The notes under the pieces were generated by a model. The model made no database searches and had not been told where the DNA came from. It worked only from the letters and a program-made list of their open reading frames with translations. A DNA stretch of 64,000 nt from Gammaproteobacteria bacterium (GTDB lineage Bacteria; Pseudomonadota; Gammaproteobacteria; JAJDYQ01). This document shows positions 3,795-57,750 of this stretch, in pieces. Each line of letters opens with the position of its first letter. Position 1 is the stretch's first letter. The stretch is from NCBI GenBank assembly GCA_965214035.1, contig OZ243932.1, positions 1,583,363 through 1,647,362 on the forward strand. The letters are read 5' to 3'. The position numbers and the translations under genes were made by a program.

Positions 3795-4013
3795 GGATTT
3801 ATCCGGTAACGTAGTCACTTCATGTAACAGAGCAGTGATTTTACCAATTGATGGAGCGACCAGAGCTGCCAGTCAGTTTATAGCAACACAGTAAAAGCCA
3901 TTACCAACCATAGCCAGCCGGAGGCCTTGTGTAAAGCAGGACGGGATTCAACAGCCTCAATCTCTGTTAAACAGATCTCCTGAATCTGTTGAGCAGGAAG
4001 GCAACAGAGTGTC

Positions 4014-4064
4014 AAAAAAGCGGGGCCGGAGGTACAGCGTTCTACAAGGAGGGTTTCCGGCCCC
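4014..4064 (-). terminator. Rho-independent terminator of autotransporter copy 1
   Basis: On the minus strand the sequence reads GGGGCCGGA...TCCGGCCCC, a 9-bp GC stem, followed by GCTTTTTT. It is duplicated in copy 2. Confidence 0.7.
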
Positions 4065-4105
4065 GTAATAGCCGGCCAACAGAGGAACCGGCTGACCAAT
4101 GGAGG

Positions 4106-6305: not shown

Positions 6306-6823
6306 TGAGCTACAGAGTGAAAAACCGGTAATTTGTTACTGGGAGGGGGGCAATGCAGCAGCGCCTGCGCTGGCACGCCGGTTGGTGCTGTTTGTTGCCG
6401 CGAGGACACGGTTTGTCGCGGCGATGATGCTGTTGCTGATCGTCGTCAGCCATTGTTCGGTTTTCATGTCGGTTGCTCCTGTCATATGTATTACCTGAAT
6501 TGCCGGTTACGGAGTCCCGCCTGCCCTGGCCGGCCAACACCTTTGTCGGGTTGAGCGGCTGATTTTGAACCTGCCTGTGCCGGATTGCAAATGGCAGCGG
6601 GGGTATTTCCGTGCGCCTTACCCGTTTTTGCATATCAAAAATACGATTGCAACCGTTTTTTTTCATCATTTTATGCCCTGGCCGGTATGATGGGCAGGAT
6701 GCGGCGGCTGTCCGGCTTCGTTCGGCATGTACGGCAGTCGCTGAAAACGGGGGATTTCCGTTCAGATTAACGCTTTTCGAGGCTGTTCGGATTGATGCAG
6801 GGCAAACCGGCCACAATTTTGTT

Positions 6824-6852
6824 TTGACGCCGGCGTATCGTGTTCGTATGAT
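6824..6852 (+). promoter_or_regulatory. Putative sigma-70 promoter of the tRNA cluster
   Basis: TTGACG (6824-6829), a 17-nt spacer, then TATGAT (6847-6852). An A/T-rich stretch lies upstream and tRNA-Pro starts at 6872. Confidence 0.55.
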
Positions 6853-6871
6853 GCTGTGCTTCGGGAAAAAT

Positions 6872-6948
6872 CGGGGTATGGCGCAGTCTGGTAGCGCATC
6901 TGCTTTGGGAGCAGAGGGTCGGGGGTTCAAATCCCTCTGCCCCGACCA
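6872..6948 (+). tRNA. tRNA-Pro (anticodon TGG)
   Basis: Hand-folded cloverleaf. Acceptor CGGGGTA/TGCCCCG, anticodon arm TCTGC-TTTGGGA-GCAGA, T-loop TTCAAAT, encoded CCA. Confidence 0.9.
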
Positions 6949-7006
6949 TTGCTGGCAGGACGGGTCGGTTGCAAACACCGGCTTTGTGCCTCATGGGTCA
7001 GTATTT

Positions 7007-7083
<77 letters not shown>

Positions 7084-7107
7084 GAGACGGGCCGGGTGGA
7101 AAGTTAT

Positions 7108-7184
7108 GGTGGGTGTAGCTCAGTTGGTAGAGCACTGGATTGTGGCTCCGGATGTCGAGGGTTCGAGTCCCTTCACTCACCCCA
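7108..7184 (+). tRNA. tRNA-His (anticodon GTG)
   Basis: The extra 5' G(-1) typical of tRNA-His is present. Anticodon arm CTGGA-TTGTGGC-TCCGG, T-loop TTCGAGT, CCA. Confidence 0.9.
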
Positions 7185-7352
7185 TATCCATGCCGGACAT
7201 GGATGAAACTTGACGGGCCGACAGGATTCCGTCAACAATCAGGCACAAGTTACAAGCCGTCAGGGCCGTTATCTGTGGTCTGTATGGTGTCAACGGCTGT
7301 TTTCTGGTGTCCTTGTAGATATATGAGCGTTATGAGCAGTCAGGGAGAAACG

Positions 7353-7437
7353 GCGAAAGTGGCGGAATTGGCAGACGCGCCGGATTTAGGTTCCGGTGCC
7401 GCAAGGCGTGAGAGTTCGAGTCTCTCCTTTCGCACCA
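7353..7437 (+). tRNA. tRNA-Leu (anticodon TAG)
   Basis: Acceptor GCGAAAG/CTTTCGC, anticodon arm CCGGA-TTTAGGT-TCCGG, long variable arm GCC-GCAA-GGC, T arm GAGAG-TTCGAGT-CTCTC, CCA. Confidence 0.9.
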
Positions 7438-26401: not shown

Positions 26402-27457
26402 CTATATCGCGACCAATAATTGTGCGCTGAAATAATCATTTTGATCCGTCCAGACTTTTTTGACCTGAAAGCCGGACTGCCCGGCGATCTTTTCAAACTC
26501 CTTTAATGAATACTTGTATGAACTTTCGGTATGGATACTGTCACCGGTTGCCAGAGAAAATTTCTTTTGGCTGATCGAGAATGCTTGATTGGTGATGCTT
26601 ACCAGATGCATCTCAACGCGGCCTTTAGACTCATTATAAAAGGCTTCATGCTGAAATTTTTCCACATCAATATCGGCACCAAGCTCACGGTTAATCCGAT
26701 GCAGGAGATTCAGGTTGAATGCGGCGGTGACTCCTGCCTTATCGTTGTAGGCACTATGCAACACCTGTTCATCTTTTTTCAAATCAACCCCAATCAGCAA
26801 CTGACCACCGATACCGACAAGCCCGTGAATCTGGCGCATAAAGGCGATTGCTTCATCAGTGTGGAAGTTGCCGATGCTGGAACCGGGATAAAATGCGACG
26901 ACAGAATCAGTGCTGCAATGCGGAGGCAGAGTTAATTCGCTGGAAAAGTCCGCACATACAGCATGTACCTCAAGCCATGGATAGTCGTCAGCCAGACTCT
27001 GGGTTGCTTCGAGCAAAAACTCCTTGGAGATATCAACACCAAGGTACTGATTGGGACGAAATGACTCCAACAAAACCCTGATTTTTTCACTGCTGCCGCT
27101 GCCCAGTTCAACGAGAATGCACTCTTCCCCTATATGATGGGCAATATCATCCACATTATCCCTGAAAATACCGATCTCGGTGCGGGCTGGATAATACTCC
27201 GGCAGTTCACAGATTTTATCGAAAAGCACGGAACCCTGCTGATCGTAAAGATATTTGGGAGAAATTGCCTTTGGAGTACAACTCAGGCCAGACAGTACCT
27301 CGCCCAGAAAGTCACTGTCCGTGACGGAATAGTCGTGAAACTCAACGGCATTATTGGATTCAGTCGCAATGCTGTCAGTGTCTGCGGGTGAAAAATTCAT
27401 AAAATTAAAGGGTTTTTTCAGTTTATTTCCGATGATCATGGTCATGGTAACATACAA
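26402..27457 (-). CDS. EgtD-like SAM-dependent (histidine N-alpha-type) methyltransferase family protein
   Basis: PKYLYDQQGSVLFDKICELPEYYPARTE, ELGSGSSEKIRVLLE and YLGVDISKEFL match the EgtD/TIGR03438-type family from memory. The start is uncertain; an internal ATG at 27400 gives MNFSPAD.... Confidence 0.65.
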   Translation of the reverse strand: MYVTMTMIIGNKLKKPFNFMNFSPADTDSIATESNNAVEFHDYSVTDSDFLGEVLSGLSCTPKAISPKYLYDQQGSVLFDKICELPEYYPARTEIGIFRDNVDDIAHHIGEECILVELGSGSSEKIRVLLESFRPNQYLGVDISKEFLLEATQSLADDYPWLEVHAVCADFSSELTLPPHCSTDSVVAFYPGSSIGNFHTDEAIAFMRQIHGLVGIGGQLLIGVDLKKDEQVLHSAYNDKAGVTAAFNLNLLHRINRELGADIDVEKFQHEAFYNESKGRVEMHLVSITNQAFSISQKKFSLATGDSIHTESSYKYSLKEFEKIAGQSGFQVKKVWTDQNDYFSAQLLVAI

Positions 27458-27537
27458 CAGCTTTCGCTGCCACTTGAACCTGATGAGGCGGGCGTTACTC
27501 GTTTGGAAGAAATCATGTCTGGTGCTGCAACTGCCAC

Positions 27538-28275
27538 CTATGCCAAACGCAGAAACTGTCTGACAGATACAGGTTCAGAGCACCATAACCGGGCAGAACT
27601 TTCTGGAGTGCAATATCGACAAAGCCAGGACTGAAAATCCTCAAGGGTGATTTCTCTTGCCCCCAGCGAGAATAAATGTGCCGAGCTGACCTGACAGTCA
27701 ACCAGATGAAAATCATGATTCAGCAGATGACGAACCAGACAGGCGAGAGCCACCTTTGAGCTGTCCCGAACTCTGGAAAACATGGATTCCCCAAAAAATA
27801 TCCGGCCGACGACAATGCCATACAATCCGCCGACCAGTTCCCCATCCTGCCAAATCTCGGCAGAATGGGCATGCTTCAAGTCGTGCAGGTGCTGATATGC
27901 CGCCATCATATCGGCGGTTATCCAAGTATCGGAGTCGCCACTGCGACCTGCCGCACAACTTTCAATGACACTGGCAAAATCACGGTCAAGCGAAAAAACA
28001 AATCCGGCATTCCGGCAGGTTTTTCTCAGGCTGCGGCTCATTTTGAACTCGTCAGGCAACAGAACACAGCGCGGCGATGGAGACCACCACATAATAGACT
28101 GTCCTTCGCAGTACCATGGGAATATGCCTTTTTTATAGGCGGCCAACAGGCGTCCCGGAGCCAGATCGCCACCCAGACACAAAAGGCCATCGGGATATTT
28201 CAGGGCAGCCTCTGCCGGAGGAAAATTATCGGGGGCAGAACCCGGTTCAATCCAGAACAATGAAGGCCGACTCAT
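27538..28275 (-). CDS. aat: Leucyl/phenylalanyl-tRNA--protein transferase
   Basis: GGDLAPGRLLAAYKKGIFPW...WWSP.PR...FFGESMFS. The start overlaps the stop of the upstream gene by 4 nt. Confidence 0.9.
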   Translation of the reverse strand: MSRPSLFWIEPGSAPDNFPPAEAALKYPDGLLCLGGDLAPGRLLAAYKKGIFPWYCEGQSIMWWSPSPRCVLLPDEFKMSRSLRKTCRNAGFVFSLDRDFASVIESCAAGRSGDSDTWITADMMAAYQHLHDLKHAHSAEIWQDGELVGGLYGIVVGRIFFGESMFSRVRDSSKVALACLVRHLLNHDFHLVDCQVSSAHLFSLGAREITLEDFQSWLCRYCTPESSARLWCSEPVSVRQFLRLA

Positions 28276-29438
28276 GATATTTCCTTCTTTTTATAGGCGG
28301 AACTATCGGACAACTGCCGGTGAAAATCCCGCATGGCGCGTATTTCATCCCGCAAAAACTGATCAATGGCCTGACGAAAATCAGCGCGGGCAATCCAGTG
28401 TGCCGAATATGTAAATGACGGGTCAAAGCCTCTGGATATTTTATGCTGTCCCTGTGCGCCGGGTTCAAAGCGTTTAAGCCCATGCTGTATGGCATACTCA
28501 ATGCCGCGATAATAACAAGTCTCAAAATGCAGGCCGGGGATATCCCGGATTGCCTCACGGTGGCACCCCCAGTGGCGGCCATATAACACATCGCGACTAC
28601 GAAAATTGATAGCCATGGCAATGGGCTTTTCATCAAGGCAGGCCATGGCAATAACAATCTGCTCACCCATGGAATCACCGATCTCCTTCCAGAAACCGGC
28701 ATTTAATGTGGCATAACCGCTTTTCTCAGTGAATGTATTGACATAATAACGATGAACCAGCTCCCACTGATCCTCATTCAGGTCGGTGCCCGACAGCATA
28801 TCGACATGGACATTTTTTTCCCTGACCCGGCGCCGTTCCTGTTTGATTTTCTTGCGTTTATCGTGGCGCAGTGATGACAGGAAATCCTGGAAACTGTGAT
28901 AGTCTGCATTATGCCAGTGATACTGCACATCATGGCGTACAGACATGCCCTCCTCCTCCAGCAATTTCAACTGCCGACTTTCCGGAAACAGACAATGCAG
29001 GCCGGAAAAACTATTTTCATGGCAATAGGCCAGAGCGGCCTTTGCCAGCCGTGCTGCCATGACCGCATCGCCATCCGGCACCAGCAGACGCCTGCCGGTT
29101 GCCGGCGTATAAGGAATAGCCGAAACCAGTTTGGGATAATAGCGCACACCATGGCGATGAAAGGCATCGGCCCAGGACCAGTCAAACACCAGCTCACCGT
29201 AGGAATTATTTTTCGCATACAGCGGCATGGCACCGACCAGACTGCCGTGCCGGTCACGAGCCACAAGAAAACGTGGAAACCAGCCAAAACGCTCACCAAC
29301 GGCACCATGCCGTTCCAATGCCACCAGAAACTCATGGCGCAGAAAGGGAGAATGATCGATATTCAGCGCATTCCACTGAGCGGACTCGACGGTCTCCAGA
29401 GAATCAATAACCTCAATATCGCACGGCACTGACGACAT
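28272..29438 (-). CDS. DUF482 / FemAB-like (COG3146) GNAT-superfamily protein
   Basis: 388 aa. SPFLRHEFLVALERHGAVGERFGWFPRFLV...YYPKLVSAIPYTPATGRRLL is typical of the PF04339 family, recalled from memory. Confidence 0.65.
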   Translation of the reverse strand: MSSVPCDIEVIDSLETVESAQWNALNIDHSPFLRHEFLVALERHGAVGERFGWFPRFLVARDRHGSLVGAMPLYAKNNSYGELVFDWSWADAFHRHGVRYYPKLVSAIPYTPATGRRLLVPDGDAVMAARLAKAALAYCHENSFSGLHCLFPESRQLKLLEEEGMSVRHDVQYHWHNADYHSFQDFLSSLRHDKRKKIKQERRRVREKNVHVDMLSGTDLNEDQWELVHRYYVNTFTEKSGYATLNAGFWKEIGDSMGEQIVIAMACLDEKPIAMAINFRSRDVLYGRHWGCHREAIRDIPGLHFETCYYRGIEYAIQHGLKRFEPGAQGQHKISRGFDPSFTYSAHWIARADFRQAIDQFLRDEIRAMRDFHRQLSDSSAYKKKEIS

Positions 29439-32306: not shown

Positions 32307-34046
32307 ATGAAGGCAACCACACACAAGCCCCCCCAGCCATCCCCCGAACCGACGCCTGTCCGCCCCCCTGCAGCATTCACACGCCGCGACATGGCCGCCG
32401 CTATCGGCCTCGCGCTGCTCATTGCAGTCAGCTATTTCCCGGCCCTGACAGCCGGCTTCATCTGGGACGACATCATCTTCACCGAAGAGCCGGTGATACA
32501 CCGCTGGTCAGGGCTGTGGAACATCTGGTTCTCACCGTCCGACATCCGCAAGGAAGGCCACTACTGGCCGATTGTCTATACCACCTTCTGGCTTGAACAC
32601 AAACTGTGGGGACACGCACCGCTTGGCTACCACCTTGTGAACATACTGCTGCACATCATCAACACCCTGCTGATATGGCGACTGATGAAGCGGCTCAACG
32701 TACCCGCTGCCCTGGCCATTGCCGCCCTGTTTGCCGTTCACCCCCTGCATGTAGAATCGGTAGCATGGATCATCGAACGCAAGGACCTGCTCTCGGCACT
32801 GTTTTATCTGGCGGCGATACACACCTGGCTGCGCCACAACGAAGCACCACACCCGCTGCGCTATGGTGCGGCGCTGCTCTTGTTCATCGCCGGCCTGCTG
32901 TCAAAATCAATCGTCATTACCCTGCCGGCCGCGCTGCTGATATGGCACTGGTGGGCACAGGGGCGCATCCACCGCATCGACATACTGCGGCTGCTACCAT
33001 TTTTTATTATCGGGCTGGCCATCACAGCCGCCGACCTGACCTACTACAACTGGCGCGAACCACTCGACCTCGACTACTCGATCATCGAACGAATCCTGAT
33101 AGCGGCGCGCGTACTATGGTTCTATGCCGGCAAACTGCTGTGGCCGGATGACCTGATCATCATCTACCCGCTATGGGAAATACAGGCCGGCGACCTGACC
33201 GGCTGGCTGTATGTTGCGGCGGCGGCCGTGCTGCTGGCAGTGCTGCTATACCGCCCATGGGGCCGCGCCCCGCTGGCCGGCATCCTGTTCTACACCATCA
33301 CCCTGTCACCGGTACTGGGATTCATAGACTACGGCTTCATGCAATTCTCACTGGTGGCCGACCGCTTTCAATATCTGGCCGGTATCGGCCTGATAGCAAT
33401 ACTGACCGGCACCGCCGCCCGCGGCATCAGCCGCCTGAACGAGACAGGACAGCGCACAGCGACCGGCGCATTCATGGTGATACTGGCAATACTCGGCACA
33501 CTCACCTGGCAGCAATCGAAGCTGTACCGTGACGACCTCACCTTCTTCAGCTACATTCTCACCCACAACCCGCAGGCACGCGATGCCAGTCTCAATCTCG
33601 GTGCCGCACTGCTGCGTGCAGGCCGCCTGCAAGAAGGCCTCGCCGCCAGCCAGACCGCACTCCGGCAGCGCCCCGACTCGGCCACCGCCAACGCCCACCT
33701 CGGTTATGCACTGCTGCTCATGCAGCGCCTGGACGAAGCCGCCGTCAGACTTACCCGTGCGCTGGAACTCGACCCCCTCAATGAACAGGCACTCGACTAC
33801 CTCGCCAACATACGCTTCAACCAGCAGCGATACGAAGAAGCGCACACCCTGTACCGCACCCTGCTGCAAGTGCGCCCCGCAAGCGCCCAGACCCACCTGA
33901 ACCTGGGTGCCGCGCTGTACTACCTCGGCCGCCGCGAGCAGGCCCTGGCCAGCTTTGAACAGGCACTGTCCCTCGATCCGCACCTGCCGGCCGCCCAGGA
34001 AAGCACCGCCCGACTGCGCCGCAGCCTCAACAAAAAAAGCCGCTGA
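32307..34046 (+). CDS. TMTC-like GT-C family membrane protein with C-terminal TPR repeats (paralog 1)
   Basis: 579 aa. It has a polytopic N-terminal domain with GFIWDD in the first loop and FAVHPLHVESVAWIIERKDLLSALFYL, followed by TPR repeats. It is strongly similar to the 38159-40699 protein over the membrane domain. Visibly GC-rich. Confidence 0.75.
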   Translation: MKATTHKPPQPSPEPTPVRPPAAFTRRDMAAAIGLALLIAVSYFPALTAGFIWDDIIFTEEPVIHRWSGLWNIWFSPSDIRKEGHYWPIVYTTFWLEHKLWGHAPLGYHLVNILLHIINTLLIWRLMKRLNVPAALAIAALFAVHPLHVESVAWIIERKDLLSALFYLAAIHTWLRHNEAPHPLRYGAALLLFIAGLLSKSIVITLPAALLIWHWWAQGRIHRIDILRLLPFFIIGLAITAADLTYYNWREPLDLDYSIIERILIAARVLWFYAGKLLWPDDLIIIYPLWEIQAGDLTGWLYVAAAAVLLAVLLYRPWGRAPLAGILFYTITLSPVLGFIDYGFMQFSLVADRFQYLAGIGLIAILTGTAARGISRLNETGQRTATGAFMVILAILGTLTWQQSKLYRDDLTFFSYILTHNPQARDASLNLGAALLRAGRLQEGLAASQTALRQRPDSATANAHLGYALLLMQRLDEAAVRLTRALELDPLNEQALDYLANIRFNQQRYEEAHTLYRTLLQVRPASAQTHLNLGAALYYLGRREQALASFEQALSLDPHLPAAQESTARLRRSLNKKSR

Positions 34047-34122
34047 CCCGCTAAAAATGCACAATGGACAGCAAAATTTGCGCAAATCCGGCCTGAAGTC
34101 CGGTTTTTCACTCTGTAGCTCA

Positions 34123-36638
34123 ATGGCTGCGGTGCAGCCTGCCTACCCTGCTGCTCTGTCTGCCGCTGCTGCTCGGATTTTCCGGCGCGGTACAGGCGCA
34201 GGCTATCCTGTCCATCGAGGGGCCCGACGATACCAGTGAGGGAAACTCCGGCTCGCAGGACCTCACCTACACGGTCAGCCTGTCGCAGCAGATAACGGGC
34301 AGAGTGTTATGGCGAGTCTGTTTCAGTGGTACGGCAACACGAGATACTACAGGGCGTATCACGCCTCCGCTGGGCTCTGATTATGTGGCCCGATTCGCTG
34401 GAAATCCATTCGGACTAAATTGTACAGACAATGCAGGATTAGGCTCCGCTATTTCTTCCACCTTACTCTCCAATACTTTCGTCGGCGTTGGCATATTCGG
34501 CGACACCACTCCCGAACCCAACGAAACCATTACCGCCACCCTGGAAATAACCCAGGCACACGGCAGTGTCACTCTTGGCACTGCTATGACCACCTTCACC
34601 ATCCTCAACGACGACATACCGATGGTGAACATCACCGCCGCCACCGTGACCTTCACCATGAATCCGCCCAGACTGCAGCGTTTTAATATCGAGCTTTGCC
34701 TCGGTGGCACCGCCGAGCGCGGCAGCCATGCGGACTATCAGTACACATTCCTGGATAACACAGAGCCTCGTCTTAGTAGTGGTTGTAGAGATCTGCTTAT
34801 ACTCCCTGACAATCCATCCTTCAGCCGCAAAATCCGGGTCAACGGAGACAGCCTGTTCGAGGATGACGAAACCGTCATGGTCAGCCTGCGACCAGTCAGT
34901 GGTGTGGGCAGTGGTTTGGGCGGCAACTCCGATACCCCCCGCCGATGTCATCATCTCCGCCACTGACGGCAGTGTCACCTACACCATCCGCAATGACGAC
35001 CGCACCGGCGTCACACTCAGCAAAACCGCACTGACCCTGTCGGAAAACAGCGGCACCGACAGCTACACCGTGGCACTCACCTCACAACCGGCCGCCAATG
35101 TCACCGTCACGGCCATGGCCAGCGGCATCACCCTCGACAACGGCTCCGGCGGCAACACCCTGACCTTCACCTCGATGGACTGGCAGCGGGCACAGACGGT
35201 GACGGTGATGGACTCCGAAGCGCTGCGCGAGGACCGAGTGGAGTTGACTCATATGGCGACCGGTGGTTATGACGGCGTTACGGCGGTCATGGAGGTACGT
35301 ATCACGGGCGGCGATATGGCCGAGATGCAGGCGGCGCAGGCGCTCTGGCTGCCGCGCTTTGGTCTGACGGTGATTGAGCACATGCTGGACGGGCTGGATG
35401 AGCGTTTTACCGCATCGAGTCAGCCCGGTTTGTCGGGGCACCTGCACGGCCTGCCACGGGGTCAGGCGCTGCATGCGACCCGCTCTGGTCAGGCTGCGGA
35501 CTCTGTTTCAACGGGCCTTGAGCCGTTGGGAGCCGGTTCAGTGGATCGTCCGCATTCACTCTCGCGCACGCTGTCCTTGCCGAAGCTGCTGCCGTCTCTG
35601 CTGCGTGGCAGTCACTTTACACTCAGTGATGAGCACGGTGTCTCGCTCTGGGGTCGGGCGGCGTATTCGGGCTATGAAGACGGTGCAGACGGCCTCAGCA
35701 CGGACGGTGAAGTGACCACGGCCCTGCTGGGTATTGACCACAACAGCGGTCAGACGCTGCTGGGTCTGGCGCTGACCTACAGCGACAGTGATGGCGAATG
35801 GCAGGGTGAATCGGATGAGGGTGAGCTGTCCGGCACGCTGGCCTCTATCCTGCCGTATGTGCGCCATGACCTGACCGAGCGTCTGCAACGGTGGGGTGCG
35901 GTCAGTTATGGTCAGGGTGACTTGCAGCAGACTTCACAGACCGGTATGGAATCGGAACACGATCTGGAGCAGTGGTCTGCCACGGCCGGTCTGCGTGGCA
36001 CGCTGCTGGAGCGTCCGGTAGAAGAGGGCGGCTTGACTGTGCGCCTGACCTCGGACATGACGCTGGCCCGTATTGAGTCGGATGACTCCGAGGTGATGGC
36101 CGGTACCGAGGCGGACACACAGCGTTTGCGCATGGGTCTGGCCTGGTCCTGGCAGATGCTGGACAAAGGCTTGACCGTCGAGCTGCGCGGTCGCTATCTG
36201 CTGGAGCAGGAGGCTTCCGAGCGGCAGGAGTGGGGTCTGTCCGGTTCACTGCGTTACAAGGCGCGGCCGGACTCGGCGCATGGTCCGTCGTTCAGTCTGC
36301 GTCAGGAATACGGCAATGCACCGGCTGCCAGCGGTCTGGAGCGGCTGTTGTCGGACTCCCTGACGGATGCGTTGAAGGAAGACAACTCTCAAACCGCCGA
36401 AGTATCGAGTCAATGGACCCTGAAAGGCGAGTGGGGCTTTGCCCTGCACAACGCCACCGGCATCCCCTATGCCAGCCTGTCGGCGTCCGATGCCAAACGT
36501 GACCTGACCCTCGGCTGACGCCTGCTGTCAAACCCGTCCGGCCGGAAATCGGAACTCGATATCAAGGCCATCCGCCGCCAGCAGAATAATAATGATCAAA
36601 ATCATGGCATTGGCGCGGAATTAAGGCTATACTGGTAG
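34123..36638 (+). pseudogene. Calx-beta domain autotransporter adhesin, copy 2 (frame problems plus premature stop)
   Basis: A good signal peptide (LPTLLLCLPLLLGFSGAVQA/QA) is in a different frame from the only ATG (34123). The frameshift at C6 34935-34940 is the same as in copy 1. TGA at 36516-36518 replaces the TGG of copy 1 and removes the last 40 aa of the beta-barrel. Confidence 0.8.
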
Positions 36639-36679
36639 CCTCCATTGGTCAGCCGGTTCCTCTGTTGGCCGGCTATTAC

Positions 36680-36730
36680 GGGGCCGGAAACCCTCCTTGT
36701 ATAACGCTGTACCTCCGGCCCCGCTTTTTT
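36680..36730 (+). terminator. Rho-independent terminator of autotransporter copy 2
   Basis: GGGGCCGGA (36680-88) ... TCCGGCCCC (36714-22) followed by GCTTTTTT. Confidence 0.7.
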
Positions 36731-36855
36731 GACACTTAAACGCTTTTCCACGGTAAAGCCCGCACTCCTGCACCCCAATGATAAACCGAGTGCCTCATCC
36801 CGACTGCATGACATGAGTTAGCTTGTGCAGGGTATGGCAACACAGCATCAGGTTA

Positions 36856-36864
36856 TGCTATAGT
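36856..36864 (+). promoter_or_regulatory. Possible extended -10 promoter element (TGcTATAGT)
   Basis: Lies about 150 nt upstream of the GT2-GtrA gene, just outside the repeat boundary. Confidence 0.3.
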
Positions 36865-37010
36865 CTCCAGCCGGATACCGATTCTGATGGGTGTGCCGGC
36901 AGCGGTTCGGGTTTGCCGCTTGCCCGCTGTAACCGGTTCCTTATGTCATCCCGGACAGCACCGGGATATCAATTCCCCCGACACAAATTGTTCGCACAGG
37001 AAAATATGTC

Positions 37011-38159
37011 ATGGATGATTGTGCCGCACGATCTACGGCCCCTGATTCGTCAGTCTCCATCGTGGTGCCGACATACCGGGAAGCGTCCAATATCACGATG
37101 CTTGCCGAGCGCATAGGCAGCGTATTAGATGGTTCGGGCATTAAGTGGGAGCTGGTGCTCGCTGATGATAATTCGGATGATGGCACCGATATGCTCGTTA
37201 CCGACCTTGCACATCGATTACCCATTCGCGTGGAGATGCGGTGTGAATCGCCCCGTGATCTTTCGCATTCGGTGTTGTTCGGAATCGAACGTGCCCGATT
37301 TGACCGGGTGGTGGTCATGGATGCCGATCTGTCACATCCACCTGAACGCATTGTCGATCTGCTGCATGCCCTTGATGAAGGATATGACATGGTGCTCGGC
37401 AGCCGCTATGTACCGGGCGGATTCTTTGACCGTGGATGGAGCTTGTGGCGATTCACGAATTCGCATGTGGCGAGATCACTGGCACGCCCGCTCACGGATT
37501 GTGCCGACCCCATGTCGGGTTTTTTTGCAATGAATCGCCGTATGCTGCCCGATCCACATAAATTGCAGCCTGTCGGTTACAAAATTGCTCTGGAACTGAT
37601 GGTACGTGGACGACTGCAAATCACCGAGGTGCCTATCGGCTTTCGTGACCGCCATCAGGGCACAAGCAAGATGGGCTTGCGTCAGCAGATTGAATACCTG
37701 CGCCACTTGTATCGCTTGTATGTGTTCCGGTATGACGGCCCGGTGCGACTTGCATGTTTTGCCCTGGTCGGAGCAAGCGGCCTTTTAATTGATGTCGCTT
37801 TTTATCTGGCTCTGCAGTGGGCCGGGATCGAGCATCGTATGGCGCGATTTTGTGCATTCTGGCCGGCTGTCATCTGGAACTGGTTGATGAATCGGCGGGG
37901 GGCATTCCGAGATCGTTGTCCGGAAACTCATCTGCACCGGTGGACAAGGTTCGTTATCGGTAGTCTCACAGGTCTTGTGATCAATGTCGGCAGCTATACA
38001 GCACTGACAAGCTTTGTCGATGTGTTTGATCGTCACCGGCTGCTCGCCTTCGGATTGGGTGTCGGATTAGGGGGGCTGGTCAACTTCCTGCTTGCCACAT
38101 TTTATGTTTACCACCGTCATGCGGCACCGACACAGACATCAGGCGGGGCCGGCAACTGA
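37011..38159 (+). CDS. GT2 polyprenyl-phosphate sugar synthase (DPM1/Ppm-like) fused to a GtrA-like 4-TM domain
   Basis: VSIVVPTYREASNI, DDNSDDGT and VVVMDADLSHPP are DPM1/Ppm-type GT2 motifs. The C-terminal ~130 aa have four hydrophobic helices of GtrA type (FALVGASGLLIDVAFYL...NWLMNRRGAF...). AGGAAA precedes the ATG. Confidence 0.8.
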   Translation: MDDCAARSTAPDSSVSIVVPTYREASNITMLAERIGSVLDGSGIKWELVLADDNSDDGTDMLVTDLAHRLPIRVEMRCESPRDLSHSVLFGIERARFDRVVVMDADLSHPPERIVDLLHALDEGYDMVLGSRYVPGGFFDRGWSLWRFTNSHVARSLARPLTDCADPMSGFFAMNRRMLPDPHKLQPVGYKIALELMVRGRLQITEVPIGFRDRHQGTSKMGLRQQIEYLRHLYRLYVFRYDGPVRLACFALVGASGLLIDVAFYLALQWAGIEHRMARFCAFWPAVIWNWLMNRRGAFRDRCPETHLHRWTRFVIGSLTGLVINVGSYTALTSFVDVFDRHRLLAFGLGVGLGGLVNFLLATFYVYHRHAAPTQTSGGAGN

Positions 38160-40699
38160 TGGGCAGGGTGAAACGGCGGCCACAGACTGCTGCACAAGAG
38201 ACGCTAAAAACGGCTCAAAACCAACTGGCAGGCAGTCCCGCCGAATCTGACTGCTCCAGACATCTGTCGGCAGCAGGACCCGGCGCATTCACTCGCCGCG
38301 ATATAATGGTCGTCCTCGGCCTCGCACTGCTCATTTTGATCAGCTATTGGCCGGCGCTTGCTGGCGGCTTTGTCTGGGATGATGTCGCCTTTTCCAAAGA
38401 GAAGACCATCCATCAATGGTCGGGCCTGTGGAAGATCTGGTTTTCGCCGTCTGCCATCGGCAATGAGGGCCACTATTGGCCCATTACCTATACTACTTTC
38501 TGGCTCGAACACAAGCTATGGGGTCTGGAGCCATTCGGCTACCATCTGGTCAATGTATTGCTGCATGTGACCAACACCGTGCTGCTGTGGCGGCTGATGC
38601 TGCGGTTTTTGGTGCCCGGTGCCCTTGCCATCGCGGCACTGTTCGCTGTCCACCCCCTGCATGTGGAATCAGTCGCATGGATAATCGAGCGCAAGGATCT
38701 GCTCTCCGCATTATTTTATCTGGGCGCGGTATTTATGTGGGTTCGTTTCATCGAGGCACCGCATCCGGGGCGTTACTGCGCGGCACTGGTGCTGTTTGTG
38801 GCCGGTATGCTTTCGAAATCGATCACCGTCACTCTGCCGGCCGCTCTTCTCATCTGGCACTGGTGGTCATATGGTCGCATAAGCAGATATGATGTACTTC
38901 GATTGGCACCTTTTTTTCTGGTTGGGCTTGCTGTCACGGCTGCCGATCTCATGTACTACACCTCACGCGAGTCGCTTGCGCTGGGCTATTCGTTCGTTGA
39001 GCGGATATTAATCGCGGCACGTGCATTATGGTTTTATGTGGGCAAGCTGCTATGGCCGGTCGATCTGATGGTGATTTATCCATTGTGGAAAATACAGGCC
39101 GGCAACCTGTTCGACTGGTTATATGTGGCTGCCGCTGTGGGACTGACAGCCACATTGTGGTTCCTGCGCCAATACCTGGGCCGCGGACCACTGGCCGGCG
39201 TCCTGTTCTTTGTGATCACTCTCTCACCGGTGCTGGGTTTCGTTGATTATGGCTATATGAAGTTTTCGTTTGTGGCCGATCGCTTTCAATATCTGGCCGG
39301 CATTGGCCTCATGGCGCTGCTGGTCGGCAGTGCGACTCTCGGCGCAAGCCGCCTGCCTGACAGGCTGCGGCATATAGTCACCGGCATGTTTGTGTCTGTG
39401 CTGGTCGTGCTGGCCGCTCTGAGCTGGCAGCAGTCAAAAATTTATCGTGACGAAGTGACATTTTTCAGCCATATCGCAGAACATAATCCGGCAGCCCATC
39501 ATGTGTATATCAACCTCGGCAACTCGCTGTTCAGAGCAGGCCGGACCGAGGAAGCCTATGCAGCAAGCCTCGCTGCCGTGGAATATCGGCCGGGTTCGGC
39601 CAAGGCACATACCAATCTTGGTTACGCACTTCTGTCTATGGAGCGCCTCGATAAGGCGCAGGTGCATCTGTCGCGGGCACTTGAGCTGAATCCCCGCAAC
39701 ATATTCGCCCGGCAGAATATGGCCCAACTGAAACGCCAACAGGGACGCCATGAGGAAGCTGTTGAACAATTCAGCGAAATACTGGAAAAAAACCCGTCAA
39801 ATGCGCGTGTCCATGCAGGTCTTGGATTGTCACTCTACGATCTGGGGCGCCACGAAGAGGCTATCGCGTCCATGCAAAGGGCGCTTGAGCTTGAACCGCA
39901 GTCAGATAACGCTCCTGTTCTACATGCATTTATCGGTCGCGCATTACAGGCGCTTGGTCAGCTTGAGGAAGCAGAGCAACGGCTTCTGCATGCTATGCAA
40001 CTGTTGCCGGACGATGCGAAATTACTGATTGATCTATCAAGTCTTCGCACCGAGCAGCAGCGCTTTGACGAAGCCGATGAGTACCTGCAGCAGGCACTCG
40101 TGATAGCACCGGCAGATACTAACGTTCTTCAGTACATGGCCGGCAGGCTCAATAATCAGGGGCAACACGAACAGGCCATTGAGTCGTATCGTGCGGTACT
40201 TGCCATTGACCCCGAATTTGCCATGGCCTATGCCGGCATGGGCCATGCCCTGTATAAGCTGGAGCGTTACGAGGAGGCTATCGAGTCGTTTGATCGTTCG
40301 CTACAACTACACTCTCACCCTCCTACCGCGACGGCCCGCCTTATATTGATGGGCAAGGCGTCGGAAAAGCTCGGTCGGGCCGGAATGGCAGTAGAGTATT
40401 ATGAACGTGCGGTTGAAATTGATCCGAAAAGTGCCGAGGCACTCGACCATCTTGCCATGACGCGCTTTACGGGGAAACGTTACGACGAGGCTCTTACCCT
40501 GTATCAGGCCATGCTTGAAGTCCGACCTGAGAGTCCTCAGATTCACTCAAATCTGGGGGCGACGCTGGTCTATCTCGACCGACCGGAGGAAGCATTGGCA
40601 AGCTTCGAGAGAGCATTGGCCCTTGACCCGGAGTTTGAAATCGCACGTAAAAGCATCAAACGGTTACGCCAGAGCCTGGAACGGAAGTCTGCCGAGTAA
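38159..40699 (+). CDS. TMTC-like GT-C family membrane protein with long C-terminal TPR array (paralog 2)
   Basis: 846 aa. The ATG overlaps the TGA of the GT2 gene (TGATG). It has GFVWDD and FAVHPLHVESVAWIIERKDLLSALFYL, and then many TPR units through to the C-terminus. Confidence 0.8.
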   Translation: MGRVKRRPQTAAQETLKTAQNQLAGSPAESDCSRHLSAAGPGAFTRRDIMVVLGLALLILISYWPALAGGFVWDDVAFSKEKTIHQWSGLWKIWFSPSAIGNEGHYWPITYTTFWLEHKLWGLEPFGYHLVNVLLHVTNTVLLWRLMLRFLVPGALAIAALFAVHPLHVESVAWIIERKDLLSALFYLGAVFMWVRFIEAPHPGRYCAALVLFVAGMLSKSITVTLPAALLIWHWWSYGRISRYDVLRLAPFFLVGLAVTAADLMYYTSRESLALGYSFVERILIAARALWFYVGKLLWPVDLMVIYPLWKIQAGNLFDWLYVAAAVGLTATLWFLRQYLGRGPLAGVLFFVITLSPVLGFVDYGYMKFSFVADRFQYLAGIGLMALLVGSATLGASRLPDRLRHIVTGMFVSVLVVLAALSWQQSKIYRDEVTFFSHIAEHNPAAHHVYINLGNSLFRAGRTEEAYAASLAAVEYRPGSAKAHTNLGYALLSMERLDKAQVHLSRALELNPRNIFARQNMAQLKRQQGRHEEAVEQFSEILEKNPSNARVHAGLGLSLYDLGRHEEAIASMQRALELEPQSDNAPVLHAFIGRALQALGQLEEAEQRLLHAMQLLPDDAKLLIDLSSLRTEQQRFDEADEYLQQALVIAPADTNVLQYMAGRLNNQGQHEQAIESYRAVLAIDPEFAMAYAGMGHALYKLERYEEAIESFDRSLQLHSHPPTATARLILMGKASEKLGRAGMAVEYYERAVEIDPKSAEALDHLAMTRFTGKRYDEALTLYQAMLEVRPESPQIHSNLGATLVYLDRPEEALASFERALALDPEFEIARKSIKRLRQSLERKSAE

Positions 40700-55375: not shown

Positions 55376-55972
55376 ATGAAATCTTCGTCAATCAGCCAGC
55401 TTCGCCGGGATATTGAGTTCGATGCCGAGCTCTGCGGACATGATCTCCATTTTCATACAACCTGGGGGCTGTTTTCACCACGTGAAATTGATGATGGAAC
55501 CCTGCTGCTGCTTCAGCATCTTGATATAAAGCCGGAACATGACTGCCTTGATCTGGGCTGCGGCTACGGTTCTATCGGTCTGGCGATGGCTCGATCAGCC
55601 AATCGCGGGCAGACACTGCTGATCGACAAGGACTTTGTCGCTGTTGAATATGTTGAAAAAAATATCCGCTACAACCATATCAACAATGCCGAAGTATTGC
55701 TCAGCAACGGGTTCGACCACATTCCCCCGAACCGTCAATTCGATGTGATTGCATCCAATATCCCGGCCAAGGTCGGCAGAGAGTTGCTCACACTGATTCT
55801 GCATGACGCCTATAACAGACTGAATCCGGGTGGTTGCCTGTACATCGTGACGATCAACGGACTGCGACAATTTATGAAACGCCACATGGCTGAAACATTC
55901 AATGACTATAAAAAAATCAAACAGGGTTCACATTACACCGTGGCACGAGCCCGCAAAAACCAGTCCGGTTAA
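55376..55972 (+). CDS. Class I SAM-dependent methyltransferase (RsmC/RsmD-type small domain)
   Basis: LDLGCGYGSIGLAMA (motif I) and FDVIASNIPAKVG (NPP[FY]-like motif IV variant). The target is unknown. Confidence 0.7.
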   Translation: MKSSSISQLRRDIEFDAELCGHDLHFHTTWGLFSPREIDDGTLLLLQHLDIKPEHDCLDLGCGYGSIGLAMARSANRGQTLLIDKDFVAVEYVEKNIRYNHINNAEVLLSNGFDHIPPNRQFDVIASNIPAKVGRELLTLILHDAYNRLNPGGCLYIVTINGLRQFMKRHMAETFNDYKKIKQGSHYTVARARKNQSG

Positions 55973-57750
55973 TCATCATCAATGCTCTCAGGTACAAGCT
56001 CTAAAAGTGCCCGAATAACCTCCCGACCTGTGGCATACCGATCATCCCGATCCTTTGACAGTAATTTACCGATGATTCTATCCAGGGGGTCAGTGACTGA
56101 TGTTAGCCGGGGTACGGGGCCACTCACATGTTGACGCATGATGTCCATCGGCGAATCACCACTGTAGGGATGCTCCCCTTCTATCATCTCGTACAGCATG
56201 ATGCCCAGAGCATACAAATCGCTGCGGCCATCAAGCGGGCTGCCAACCGCCTGTTCAGGACTGATATAGTACGGCGTACCGACCACATGATCGGAAAACG
56301 CCAGACTTGTTCTTGATTCGGTCATTAGCTTGGCAATACCAAAATCCAACAGCACCGGATCTCCGTTGGCACGGAACATCACATTAGAGGGCTTAAGATC
56401 ACGATGCAGAATATTCTGCTGATGGGCCGTATCCAGTGCTGCTGCAATCACTGTGGTGTAATGCACGATATCCTTTCGATTGATCCCTTTGCTGATGCGT
56501 TTCTTTAGATCACCTGCCGGGAAATACTCCATAACCGCATAAGCACTTTCCTCTGAAGCAACCAGATCCTGAATTGCCACGACATGCCGGTGAGACACTT
56601 TTTCAATCAATTGATAACCACGAATAAAGCGCTTCCGACCCAACCTGTCGGAAGTATCCCTGTCAAACAATTTCATTGCGGATATCTGACCCGTATCTTT
56701 ATGCTGCACCTTGAAAACCGACACCATACCACCGATAGCAACAAACTCCAGTATCCGGTAGTTATCGATGATTGCTTCACCTCTTTCTATTTGCTGCGGC
56801 GTGAATGGCCAGTACTGACCCAAGGTAAAACTCTTGGCTTTCGCATCCCGATCTTCCGGCAAGGCAGCCTGTTGCAGATTCGCACGATCCAGAATTGACA
56901 TCAGGCCGGTCGTCACGAAGGAGGCCTCCAGAGAATCATGACTCTCCTGATAGTCTGCCGTCACTTCATCAGTGACCCCGACATGGTCATGATGTTTGCC
57001 AGAGCCTGTGGTTTCCGGCAGTCTGCCATCTTCATCGCCAATGCTGCCAGAATGACCTGTCCGCATAAATCCAGTGCGTCCGGATGCACGACTGTGCGAG
57101 CCATCATCAGTTTGCACATTGAATACCACCGGATCCAGTGTCGAAGGGTTTAGACGAGGCAGTACCTCAGTTGGCTCATCAGTCATATTATCCATACCGG
57201 AAAGCACCTGTCCGCTCTGCCGAACAGATGAGTCATCACCAGTGGGCTTGTTGGTCGACTTGATCGTTGAGACAAGGCTGGCGGTGACACCGGACTCCAG
57301 TGGCAAAAACGTCGAGGCAGATTTTGTTGCAAATCCAGACTTTACCTCGTGCATATTCGCCGCTATCAATAATGCACGTGTCAGGCGTTTGAGAGACAGT
57401 CGGGTAATGTCGATATAATCAGAACCACCGGCCCGGACCATATCAGCGGCATCATCTACGGTCGCCGAACGATCCATGAAAATTATCACAGGCAATGCCG
57501 CCTGCATCACCAGATCAAAATACCAGTTCCGAATAGCTGCCTTATGCTCGGACATGTCAACGATGATCAGATCAACCTGACTCCATGCATAGCCATGCTG
57601 CGGAAGATTCTGCCGCGCAGGGTCGATTGCAGAAAATTCAGGCCTGTCCAACAAGCGCATCAAGGCAACCGCAAGCCGCCACCGATACTTGACTACTGAA
57701 CCGATAATCAGTATGCGTTTAAAACTACAGTCCTTGAGATCCTTAACCAC
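55969..57750 (-). CDS. Hanks-type serine/threonine protein kinase with N-terminal receiver-like domain
   Basis: The C-terminal half has AMKLF, HRDLKPSNVMF, DFGIAKL and GTPYYISPEQ. The N-terminal ~130 aa has a CheY-like alpha/beta pattern (ILIIGS...VDLIIVDMS...PVIIFMD...). A low-complexity linker lies in between. Confidence 0.85.
   Translation of the reverse strand: MVKDLKDCSFKRILIIGSVVKYRWRLAVALMRLLDRPEFSAIDPARQNLPQHGYAWSQVDLIIVDMSEHKAAIRNWYFDLVMQAALPVIIFMDRSATVDDAADMVRAGGSDYIDITRLSLKRLTRALLIAANMHEVKSGFATKSASTFLPLESGVTASLVSTIKSTNKPTGDDSSVRQSGQVLSGMDNMTDEPTEVLPRLNPSTLDPVVFNVQTDDGSHSRASGRTGFMRTGHSGSIGDEDGRLPETTGSGKHHDHVGVTDEVTADYQESHDSLEASFVTTGLMSILDRANLQQAALPEDRDAKAKSFTLGQYWPFTPQQIERGEAIIDNYRILEFVAIGGMVSVFKVQHKDTGQISAMKLFDRDTSDRLGRKRFIRGYQLIEKVSHRHVVAIQDLVASEESAYAVMEYFPAGDLKKRISKGINRKDIVHYTTVIAAALDTAHQQNILHRDLKPSNVMFRANGDPVLLDFGIAKLMTESRTSLAFSDHVVGTPYYISPEQAVGSPLDGRSDLYALGIMLYEMIEGEHPYSGDSPMDIMRQHVSGPVPRLTSVTDPLDRIIGKLLSKDRDDRYATGREVIRALLELVPESIDDD

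Follow-up and report, generated by a model that had tools for sequence, protein, structure and literature searches.

A candidate periplasmic O-glycosylation system for Calx-beta adhesins, with a DPMS-type synthase and TPR-bearing GT-C enzymes, in a gammaproteobacterium

In the 64,000-nucleotide stretch of gammaproteobacterial DNA analysed here (the window; contig OZ243932.1), four genes on one strand occupy positions 32307-40699. They are a membrane glycosyltransferase of the GT-C class with a C-terminal array of tetratricopeptide repeats (TPRs), here named GT-C1; an adhesin element (copy 2 of two in the window); a family 2 glycosyltransferase (GT2) fused to a GtrA-type membrane domain, GT2-GtrA; and a second GT-C/TPR enzyme, GT-C2. 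The best-supported reading, an unproven candidate to which we assign a probability of roughly 0.55, is that this cluster serves the periplasmic, polyprenyl-phosphate-hexose-dependent O-glycosylation of Calx-beta adhesins. That part of it which pairs a donor synthase with a periplasmic GT-C enzyme is very probable. What is new is the recurrence, across unrelated lineages, of one adhesin family immediately next to this GT2/GT-C pair; our literature search found no paper on such an operon of a DPMS-type and a TMTC-like enzyme, on its characterisation or on its link to Calx-beta adhesins.

The O-mannosylation of proteins from lipid-linked donors has been studied in depth in eukaryotes and actinobacteria; in Gram-negative bacteria and other environmental ones it has, to our knowledge, hardly been explored. 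If true, the reading would define a new class of bacterial protein glycosylation, would make it possible to study in an amenable bacterial model how GT-C enzymes with TPRs (TMTC, TMEM260) select folded beta-sandwich clients, and would bear on the origin of the animal cadherin O-mannosylation pathway. It is also directly testable: few genes are involved, the gene of a candidate substrate lies alongside, and a hexose of +162 Da on Ser/Thr is the modification to look for.

The donor synthase and its GT-C/TPR partners

A sequence-only reading of this DNA, made earlier without database searches, had proposed a GT2 domain fused to a four-helix GtrA-like domain. Pfam bears this out, with matches to Glycos_transf_2 (PF00535, E 2.5e-23) and GtrA_DPMS_TM (PF04138, E 1.2e-18), and the three motifs quoted at the time (VSIVVPTYRE, DDNSDDGT and MDADLSHPP) are all present. 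In a comparison of a 43-homolog profile with the PDB, residues 14-365 aligned with residues 21-367 of the dolichyl-phosphate mannose synthase (DPMS) of Pyrococcus furiosus (5MLZ) at E 2.3e-73, the alignment taking in all four C-terminal membrane helices. The same profile reached only ~1e-19 with ArnC and ~1e-13 with the GtrB-type enzyme sll0501, and the NCBIfam ArnC model gave 54 bits against a cut-off of 529. Because the full-length match to 5MLZ far outscores those to ArnC and to the GtrB-type enzyme, GT2-GtrA is predicted to be a DPMS-type polyprenyl-phosphate hexose synthase. Mannose from GDP-mannose is most likely its sugar donor; the much better score with DPMS than with ArnC/GtrB-type enzymes is the sole basis for this preference.

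The last base of the GT2-GtrA TGA (38157-38159) is also the first of the GT-C2 ATG (38159-38161; TGATG), the overlap at 38157-38161 that had been recognised as a signature of translational coupling. Both families are large (>5300 matches for the GT-C domain and >4500 for GT2-GtrA), with a typical identity of 60-70% among Gammaproteobacteria, Chloroflexota, Gemmatimonadota, Acidobacteriota, Spirochaetota and Nitrospirota. In most of the loci that could be inspected (numbered L001 onwards), a GT-C gene lies directly 3' of the close GT2 ortholog (L002-L007, L011, L012, L027, L031, L036, L039, L086, L091, L092, L094, L096, L097, L108 and L152), and this adjacency spans Nitrospirales, Terriglobia, Spirochaetia, Holophagales, Vicinamibacterales, Dehalococcoidia, Thermoanaerobaculia, Gammaproteobacteria and metagenome contigs. 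The pairing is thus a real and an old one. The GT-C2 ortholog also follows GT2 directly in a ~95% identical strain and in a sister species with a 2.57-Mb genome.

The number of GT-C genes at such loci varies. The sister species carries two tandem 845-aa GT-C/TPR genes after its GT2-GtrA (L002, 11198-16392) where the window has one, and GT-C2 is nearer to the second of them (78% DNA identity from 38316 on). In a 7.0-Mb genome (L086, 1-20842) and a 3.56-Mb genome (L087, 10001-18768), one GT2-GtrA sits amid four to seven GT-C genes, of the PMT_2/TPR, TMEM260_N-like and Glyco_transf_22 types, the last with or without TPRs. Such an island, in which a single donor would supply many GT-C transferases, mirrors by analogy the Dol-P-Man (dolichyl-phosphate mannose)-dependent enzymes of eukaryotes.

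GT-C1 and GT-C2 match PMT_2 (PF13231) with 34.2-35.7 and 29.9-31.3 bits, respectively (gathering score 26.1), and many TPR families with E down to 1e-62. As had been suggested from the letters, their membrane domains are paralogous (64% identity across 541 aa), with every shared block pointed out then in place: AFTRRD, GF(I/V)WDD, HYWPI.YTTFWLEHKLWG and the identical block FAVHPLHVESVAWIIERKDLLSALFYL. They also continue into TPR arrays of very different length (~5 hairpins vs ~12). AlphaFold2 modelled full-length GT-C1 with a pLDDT of 88.8, as a set of 11 long helices with ten TPR helices behind it, and the membrane domain alone with a pLDDT of 88.3 and a pTM of 0.90. With the full-length model Foldseek returned TPR proteins only, so that the model of the membrane domain by itself was needed. 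All probability-1.00 matches of the latter were GT-C-A enzymes (TM-score ~0.5), namely STT3 of the oligosaccharyltransferase, ArnT, Pmt4, AglB, PglB, AftA, Pmt1/2 and Emb, with STT3, ArnT and Pmt4 the nearest, and from this model we confidently assign the membrane domain to the GT-C fold, with 11 helices. O-antigen ligase and TMTC structures were not among the Foldseek matches, and PDB sequence and profile searches with the GT-C domain gave nothing informative.

Across 71-75 homologs, the invariant or nearly invariant residues of the GT-C domain are D54-D55 right after the first transmembrane helix (TM1), E83-x-H85-Y-W-P88, R158-K-D160, K200-S...T205 and D352-R-x-Q-Y356, with D54 and D55 invariant in 71 sequences. 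GT-C1 has a basic N-terminus, and its DD loop and TPRs are ten helices apart; from this helix parity and the basic N-terminus we infer that the TPRs are periplasmic, on the same side as the catalytic DD loop. Profile searches and structure prediction had been proposed as a check, and they returned PMT_2, TPR, GtrA and Glycos_transf_2 matches and a modelled GT-C fold with the DD pair after TM1; DUF1736 was not matched. The enzyme logic put forward earlier, in which a DPMS-type synthase is translationally coupled to a GT-C enzyme whose TPRs are periplasmic, is supported as a prediction.

The same chemistry could, however, act on a non-protein acceptor. A hexose would then be placed on lipopolysaccharide core or lipid A, O-antigen, exopolysaccharide or peptidoglycan, and the TPRs would dock on an export or assembly machine. 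PMT_2 includes ArnT-like enzymes, ArnT (5F15) is among the structural neighbours of GT-C1, and three-component GT2/GtrA/GT-C systems mostly modify glycans (PMC11127046). Polysaccharide export proteins also bear TPRs, and NCBIfam gave matches to PgaA and BcsC below threshold. Against this, the top structural matches are mostly protein-glycosylating enzymes (STT3, Pmt4, AglB, PglB). An assignment to the lipid- or glycan-directed ArnT or O-antigen-ligase types had been named as an outcome that would speak against protein glycosylation; ArnT 5F15 ranks seventh (E 2e-3), after five STT3 entries, and is no closer than STT3 or Pmt4. ArnT moreover has no TPR array, and the partner GT2 is far nearer to DPMS than to ArnC, so that an ArnT/GT83 assignment is not borne out by either enzyme. 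Paralogs with a near-identical catalytic domain and different TPR lengths also fit several protein clients better than one glycan.

Linkage of the GT2/GT-C pair to one adhesin family

Past its signal peptide, the adhesin consists of ~110-aa Calx-beta-like repeats and a ~330-aa C-terminal domain that ends in LRLYW. The window sequence itself falls below the Calx-beta cut-off (PF03160; E 0.013, 15.9 bits, cut-off 27), and neither window copy has a Pfam match to Autotransporter (PF03797). The labels given in the sequence-only reading are nonetheless supported, through homologs rather than through the window sequence: a paralog in the same genome (P0243, 71% identical) matches PF03797 at E 2.7e-13, giant proteins with a Calx-beta match contain repeats that share 38-46% identity with the ~110-aa repeat, and homologous repeats in L001, L012, L086 and L108 pass the cut-off. 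Sequence and profile searches of the PDB with the adhesin beta-domain matched no solved structure.

A survey of gene neighbourhoods for secreted repeat proteins, which had been suggested as a check, was positive: in other lineages, at least six more loci have the same adhesin family adjoining the GT2/GT-C pair, and in a ~94% identical strain and the sister species an adhesin gene of this kind comes after the GT-C1 ortholog. The six are two Holophagales loci (L011, L012), a Vicinamibacterales genome and a Dehalococcoidia metagenome-assembled genome (MAG) (L027, L031), the 7.0-Mb genome (L086) and a metagenome contig (L108). The beta-domain of the window adhesin (aa 313-644) aligns with the extreme C-terminus of giant Calx-beta proteins whose genes directly precede GT2 in L011 and L012 (E 1e-12), the alignment reaching the C-terminal aromatic residue, and these proteins link on to L027, L031 and L086. 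The window repeat is 40-46% identical to at least eight repeats of the L031 protein. In Pfam, the giant proteins match Calx-beta six times (L012), Cadherin_4/5 and Big_9 (L027, L031), and Calx-beta four times in the tail of a 14,636-aa protein (L086); the Holophagales proteins match PKD besides the six Calx-beta repeats. The order adhesin, GT2, GT-C is identical in the window, L011, L012, L027 and L031, with gaps of 0-60 nt in the latter four. In L108, a contig not used in building any model, GT2 and GT-C are accompanied by an adhesin of 1614 aa in convergent orientation, which shares the beta-domain and the repeats and matches Calx-beta.

For a comparison, 65 loci that hold only distant GT2-GtrA homologs served as controls. 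A large Ig-like repeat protein occurs within 10 kb in 9 of 20 loci with a close GT2 and/or GT-C as opposed to 2 of 65 controls (Fisher p 1.7e-5), and the beta-domain family in 6 of 17 as opposed to none of 65 (Fisher p 3.5e-5). These counts are not phylogenetically independent (L011 and L012 belong to one order, and the beta-domains of L027 and L031 are 73% identical) and five of the six loci positive for the beta-domain had served to train its hidden Markov model. A reciprocal survey starting from the beta-domain was uninformative: the broad alignment had no usable conserved block, and the narrow one found no relative in the metagenome collection.

These neighbourhoods also bear on a glycan or lipid acceptor. 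It would be in keeping with the position of the cluster amid housekeeping genes in the window and in L087, and with the many GT2/GT-C loci that have no adhesin within 10 kb. It leaves unexplained, however, why one adhesin family recurs in tight, same-order adjacency in several lineages, and overall we regard it as unlikely. A second alternative keeps the protein acceptor and widens the range: general periplasmic protein O-glycosylation of many clients, such as pilins, lipoproteins, other outer-membrane or secreted proteins and PEP-CTERM-type proteins, with the adhesins as one abundant class or as co-transferred cargo. The other neighbours of the module point that way, among them a protein with fn3, LRR and SRCR domains (L010), fn3 proteins with a VP(A/M)LP-helix-RRR sorting signal (L032, L045) and a secretin (L085), as does the pairing in L086 and L087 of one GT2-GtrA type with at least five different GT-C enzymes, which suggests many acceptor classes. 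The best-conserved neighbour in the close clade is nevertheless a single family, with Calx-beta-like repeats and the beta-domain, in a fixed order, and no other client class recurs among the loci examined; we therefore hold a many-client system to be decidedly unlikely.

Other close loci encode different large secreted repeat proteins (fn3/LRR/SRCR; fn3 with Calx-beta; fn3 ending in a sorting signal). In L010 (1-9951), the protein encoded upstream of GT2 combines eukaryote-like domains, with five fn3, SRCR, LRR and weak cadherin/Calx-beta matches. Beside a GtrA-less GT2, the repeat proteins of L032 (11330-15265) and L045 (7164-9833) end in LWDA(A/S)VP(A/M)LP, a hydrophobic helix and GGYRRYLRRR. 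This C-terminus looks like an exosortase-type or similar sorting signal, and would imply an export route differing from that of the beta-domain adhesins. Several of the closest MAGs (SB06xx_bin and RHO_bin, among L009, L011, L012 and L014) presumably belong to a sponge-microbiome series, and the clade may be enriched in, and spread by gene transfer among, host-associated bacteria.

The adhesin copies, their junctions and the window

The sequence-only reading had described the adhesin as a repeat element whose boundaries fall between genes, and as a disrupted copy. Both descriptions agree with what we find (Table 1), and the disruption applies to both window copies. Copy 2 begins 54 nt past the GT-C1 stop and ends 275 nt ahead of the GT2 start; copy 1 is inverted and 99.3% identical to it over 2282 nt without gaps (15 mismatches). 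The frame of copy 2 that opens after a TGA at 34094-34096 encodes ...LPTLLLCLPLLLGFSGAVQA/QAILSIEG..., a Sec signal peptide. This signal peptide (~34139-34200) is degenerate, with a hydrophobic core and an AVQA/QA site still recognisable, and between the TGA and the signal peptide there is no in-frame ATG, GTG or TTG. Three-frame translation, together with the strain ortholog, shows a signal-peptide start, which rules out that the element is a 5'-truncated gene fragment; it is instead a whole gene, and copy 2 ends with a terminator-like T-run.

Both copies share a frameshift in a C6 run (34935-34940 in copy 2; ~5804-5809, minus strand, in copy 1), and C5 in place of C6 would give a single continuous adhesin reading frame (...GGNSDTPADVIISATDG...). 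Both also lack ~39 conserved beta-domain residues (alignment A4). Copy 2 carries in addition a TGG>TGA nonsense change at 36516-36518, and copy 1 lacks ~310 nt, the signal peptide included (34144-34459 of copy 2), while keeping the C-terminal ...LRLYW. As assembled, both copies are read as pseudogenes. The C6 frameshift could be a fixed mutation, slipped-strand phase variation or a systematic homopolymer error of long reads; neither phase variation nor homopolymer error can explain the TGG>TGA substitution and the deletions. In the sister species the adhesins of L001, L084, L088 and L168 (ctg21565c) are called as two to five consecutive open reading frames (ORFs), for example of 1196, 730, 272, 521 and 224 aa. 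Either pseudogenisation is family-wide or long-read indel errors are at work, a doubt that extends to the window genome.

Table 1. Positions in the window of the cluster genes and of the second adhesin copy
Feature	Position	Strand	Description	Evidence
GT-C1	32307-34046	+	579 aa; PMT_2-type GT-C domain ~aa 20-410, then ~5 TPR hairpins	Pfam, AlphaFold2, Foldseek
Adhesin copy 2 (read as a pseudogene as assembled)	34100-36736	+		Repeat detection, frames, beta-domain alignment A4, homologs
Unique spacer, 274 nt	36737-37010		Between the terminator-like end of the adhesin and the GT2 start	
GT2-GtrA fusion	37011-38159	+	382 aa; GT-A domain with DAD motif and four-helix GtrA/DPMS domain	Pfam, 5MLZ
GT-C2	38159-40699	+	846 aa; GT-C1-like membrane domain, then ~12 TPRs	Pfam, alignment
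Adhesin copy 1 (read as a pseudogene as assembled)	4008-6328	-	99.3% identical to copy 2	

The two GT-C paralogs bracket the adhesin in the window, as had been pointed out, but this layout is species-specific. In the sister species, GT2-GtrA and two GT-C genes lie before sucAB, whereas the GT-C1 ortholog stands after dapD, at a distance of 440 kb; next to it come an ORF with a signal peptide and, beyond that, a 3629-aa protein with the same repeat and a Calx-beta match. This split prompted the idea that the window layout is an accident of recombination between the inverted 99% copies. In the ~94% strain, however, both GCA_022827445.1 and an independent scaffold show an adhesin ORF (L169) behind GT-C1, its Sec signal peptide intact and its identity to the window copy only 79%, and a second scaffold from the same sample as the independent one starts within the element's 3' end and continues into GT2. 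The strain contigs break inside the adhesin, so that continuity of the cluster in the strain is not proven. Because the ~94-95% strain shows both junctions, with an adhesin only 79% identical, both junctions of the window cluster predate the 99% duplication. For these reasons, and because the order adhesin, GT2, GT-C recurs in other phyla, we downgraded the recombination idea.

More broadly, the adjacency of adhesin and transferases might carry no functional meaning, with the genes travelling together on transferred islands or in variable regions and the window layout arising by recombination at a duplicated gene. The composition of the cluster is indeed foreign: GC is 0.615 in GT-C1 (0.75 at third codon positions), 0.60 in the adhesin element and 0.55 in GT2-GtrA and GT-C2, as opposed to 0.506 in the housekeeping backbone. 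GT-C1 and both adhesin copies lie well above the backbone and GT2-GtrA/GT-C2 are intermediate, which suggests staggered or separate horizontal acquisition. An identity of 60-70% across phyla likewise points to transfer, and the 99% adhesin duplication and the 440-kb split in the sister species fit a chance layout. So does the scatter of the family, with at least 4-5 adhesin loci each in the window genome and the sister species, most of them elsewhere in the genome. Accidental co-travel would nevertheless have to account for the operon-like gaps of 0-60 nt and the identical order in L011, L012, L027 and L031, for the independent convergent arrangement in L108, for the absence of the beta-domain family from all 65 control loci, and for the two junctions seen in independent assemblies of the ~94-95% strain, with an adhesin divergent enough for the adjacency to predate the duplication. 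We give a meaningless adjacency very little credence.

A promoter driving GT2-GtrA and GT-C2 is presumed to lie in the unique spacer, where a consensus promoter scan found none that was convincing; the nearest match ends at 36633, inside the adhesin element. Consensus scans of the cluster for promoters and terminators gave counts near those of shuffled sequence and are uninformative. The remaining window is core chromosome (tig-clpPX-lon, mutL-miaA-hflXKC, dapD, sucAB-lpd and surE-pcm-nlpD-rpoS), in which the order surE-pcm-nlpD-rpoS is indicative of Gammaproteobacteria. Adhesin copy 1 adjoins a tRNA-Pro/Arg/His/Leu cluster. The 222-aa ORF beside that copy (6310-6978, minus strand), which has no family match, is probably not a gene because it overlaps tRNA-Pro on the opposite strand (region 6872-7437). 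Elsewhere in the window, a 593-aa protein (55969-57750, minus strand) has a eukaryotic-type Ser/Thr kinase domain in its C-terminal half (Pkinase, E 2e-47) and an N-terminal 330 aa without assignment. A lone EgtD-type histidine-specific methyltransferase (26402-29438, minus strand; Methyltransf_33, E 8e-111) neighbours a Leu/Phe-tRNA-protein transferase and a FemAB-like protein, with no other ergothioneine genes seen nearby.

Proposed mechanism and known systems

According to the model that we favour, O-glycosylation of Calx-beta adhesins in the periplasm, GT2-GtrA would act in the inner membrane, loading undecaprenyl phosphate at the cytoplasmic face with a hexose, for which mannose taken from GDP-mannose is the likeliest choice. 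The lipid-linked sugar would then be flipped to the periplasmic face, where the fused GtrA-type helices may assist. There, the GT-C/TPR enzymes would use the invariant DD loop after TM1 to transfer the sugar to an acceptor held by the periplasmic TPRs, GT-C2 being co-translated with the synthase and GT-C1 being its paralog with the shorter array; different arrays would pick different clients. Adhesins that are exported by Sec and have an autotransporter-type beta-domain would be the likeliest acceptors, modified at Ser/Thr of their Calx-beta-like repeats while they cross the periplasm. Several paralogs of such adhesins are scattered round the genome, and the in-cluster copy and its duplicate are by now pseudogenes. 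The adhesin O-glycosylation that the sequence-only reading had inferred has come through each computational check suggested with it and has gained an argument from gene linkage across lineages, but it stays a candidate, the local adhesin copies being dead and the exact layout being confined to this species. The analysis shows the domain assignments, the fold, the conserved residues, the operon coupling and the linkage; the sugar, the flipping, the side of the TPRs and the acceptor are predictions.

Several points weigh against this model, in addition to the dependence among the counts given above. Both window adhesins are non-functional as assembled (start and signal, C6 frameshift, 39-aa deletion, nonsense change), the support for every step is computational, and the sugar is named solely by the likeness of GT2-GtrA to an enzyme that handles mannose. 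Eukaryotic TMTCs modify domains that have already folded, but the passengers of classical autotransporters are mostly unfolded on their way through the periplasm. The Pfam family DUF1736 is absent, and the lipid A-directed ArnT is among the structural neighbours. The GT2 operon of the sister species has no adhesin neighbour, the adhesin loci L084, L088 and L168 of that species sit among unrelated housekeeping genes, and its closest adhesin homologs (P0247, P0251 and P0254) are all in unrelated contexts. GT2/GT-C loci without a large repeat protein within 10 kb are L002, L004, L005, L007, L036, L039 and L087.

One may speculate further that the clade is a bacterial counterpart, and possibly the evolutionary source, of animal TMTC/cadherin O-mannosylation, spread horizontally among unrelated environmental and possibly host-associated bacteria. 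Giant autotransporter-type adhesins would be O-mannosylated in the periplasm on their Calx-beta/cadherin-like repeats, in some genomes beside TMEM260-like or GT22-like GT-C enzymes that draw on the same donor. This wider proposal is tentative, and we do not expect it to hold in full.

TMTC1-4 (CAZy GT105) are cadherin-specific protein O-mannosyltransferases that use Dol-P-Man from DPM1/DPMS, and the window enzymes resemble them in having an N-terminal GT-C domain of ~11 transmembrane helices, a DD in the first extracytoplasmic loop and a TPR array on the non-cytoplasmic side. The donor synthase is likewise a DPMS homolog, and the genes are linked to cadherin-like/Calx-beta beta-sandwich repeat proteins. 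For the human enzymes, conserved motifs M1-M7 have been published (PMC7801869). By-eye comparison with the GT-C domain finds M1 (DD), M3 (RxD; R158-K-D160), M4 (K200....T205) and M7 ((D/E)RxxY; D352-R-x-x-Y356) invariant. On the other hand, the glutamate of M4 is an invariant serine in the window clade, M2 is merely similar (GHYWPL in the window clade vs SHKSYRPL in TMTC) and the DW motif of M5 was not identified. The hallmark of TMTC, DUF1736 (PF08409), is found neither in the window proteins (E up to 5) nor in the Pfam lists of the 120 best homologs. With DUF1736 absent, the earlier label TMTC-like holds for architecture and motifs only, and family membership is not established. The bacterial system would also differ in its carrier (undecaprenyl phosphate), its compartment (the periplasm) and its acceptors (autotransporter-type adhesins). 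Full-length prokaryotic homologs of TMTC3, uncharacterised, were noted in 2021 (24% identity, E 3e-47; PMC7801869), and distant bacterial homologs of TMEM260 in 2023.

The earlier statement that no such system had been characterised in gammaproteobacteria was too strong. TfpW of Pseudomonas aeruginosa Pa5196/PA7 is a precedent: a GT-C enzyme with a periplasmic TPR domain, it acts as a pilin O-arabinosyltransferase with a polyprenyl-phosphate sugar and a GtrA-like protein. Like the enzymes proposed here, it glycosylates Ser/Thr of a secreted protein and its gene lies beside that of its substrate, just downstream of pilA, also in a gammaproteobacterium. It differs in its sugar, D-Araf made by way of DprE1/DprE2-type enzymes rather than a DPMS-type GT2, in its substrate, a type IV pilin, and in that it also polymerises the glycan; neither a pilin nor a DprE-type gene was found in the cluster or the 64-kb window. 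The actinobacterial Ppm1/Pmt system (GT39) likewise combines a polyprenyl-phosphate-mannose synthase with a GT-C O-mannosyltransferase acting on Sec-exported proteins. GT39 enzymes, however, match Pfam PMT (PF02366), the eukaryotic ones with MIR, and have no TPR array, whereas the window proteins match PMT_2 only; in Foldseek, Pmt1/2 and Pmt4 are no closer to GT-C1 than STT3 or ArnT.

Gtr-type and ArnC-ArnT systems (PMC11127046) show the same division of labour and, for their first two components, the same Pfam families, GT2 and GtrA. Those systems modify O-antigen, lipid A and wall polysaccharides, and their GT-C enzymes are without TPR arrays. In the window GtrA is fused to GT2, as in archaeal DPMS, and ArnC/GtrB-type enzymes score far below DPMS. 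The P. furiosus enzyme (5MLZ, type III) is the full-length likeness of the donor synthase, catalytic domain and four C-terminal membrane helices included, the window protein differing in being bacterial. Glycosylated autotransporters are known as well: AIDA-I, Ag43 and TibA are modified by the Aah/TibC heptosyltransferases, and HMW1 by HMW1C. There too an adhesin passenger is glycosylated by the enzyme of a neighbouring gene. Those enzymes, however, are soluble, cytoplasmic and dependent on nucleotide sugars, whereas the window transferase would be a periplasmic membrane GT-C enzyme with a lipid-linked donor.

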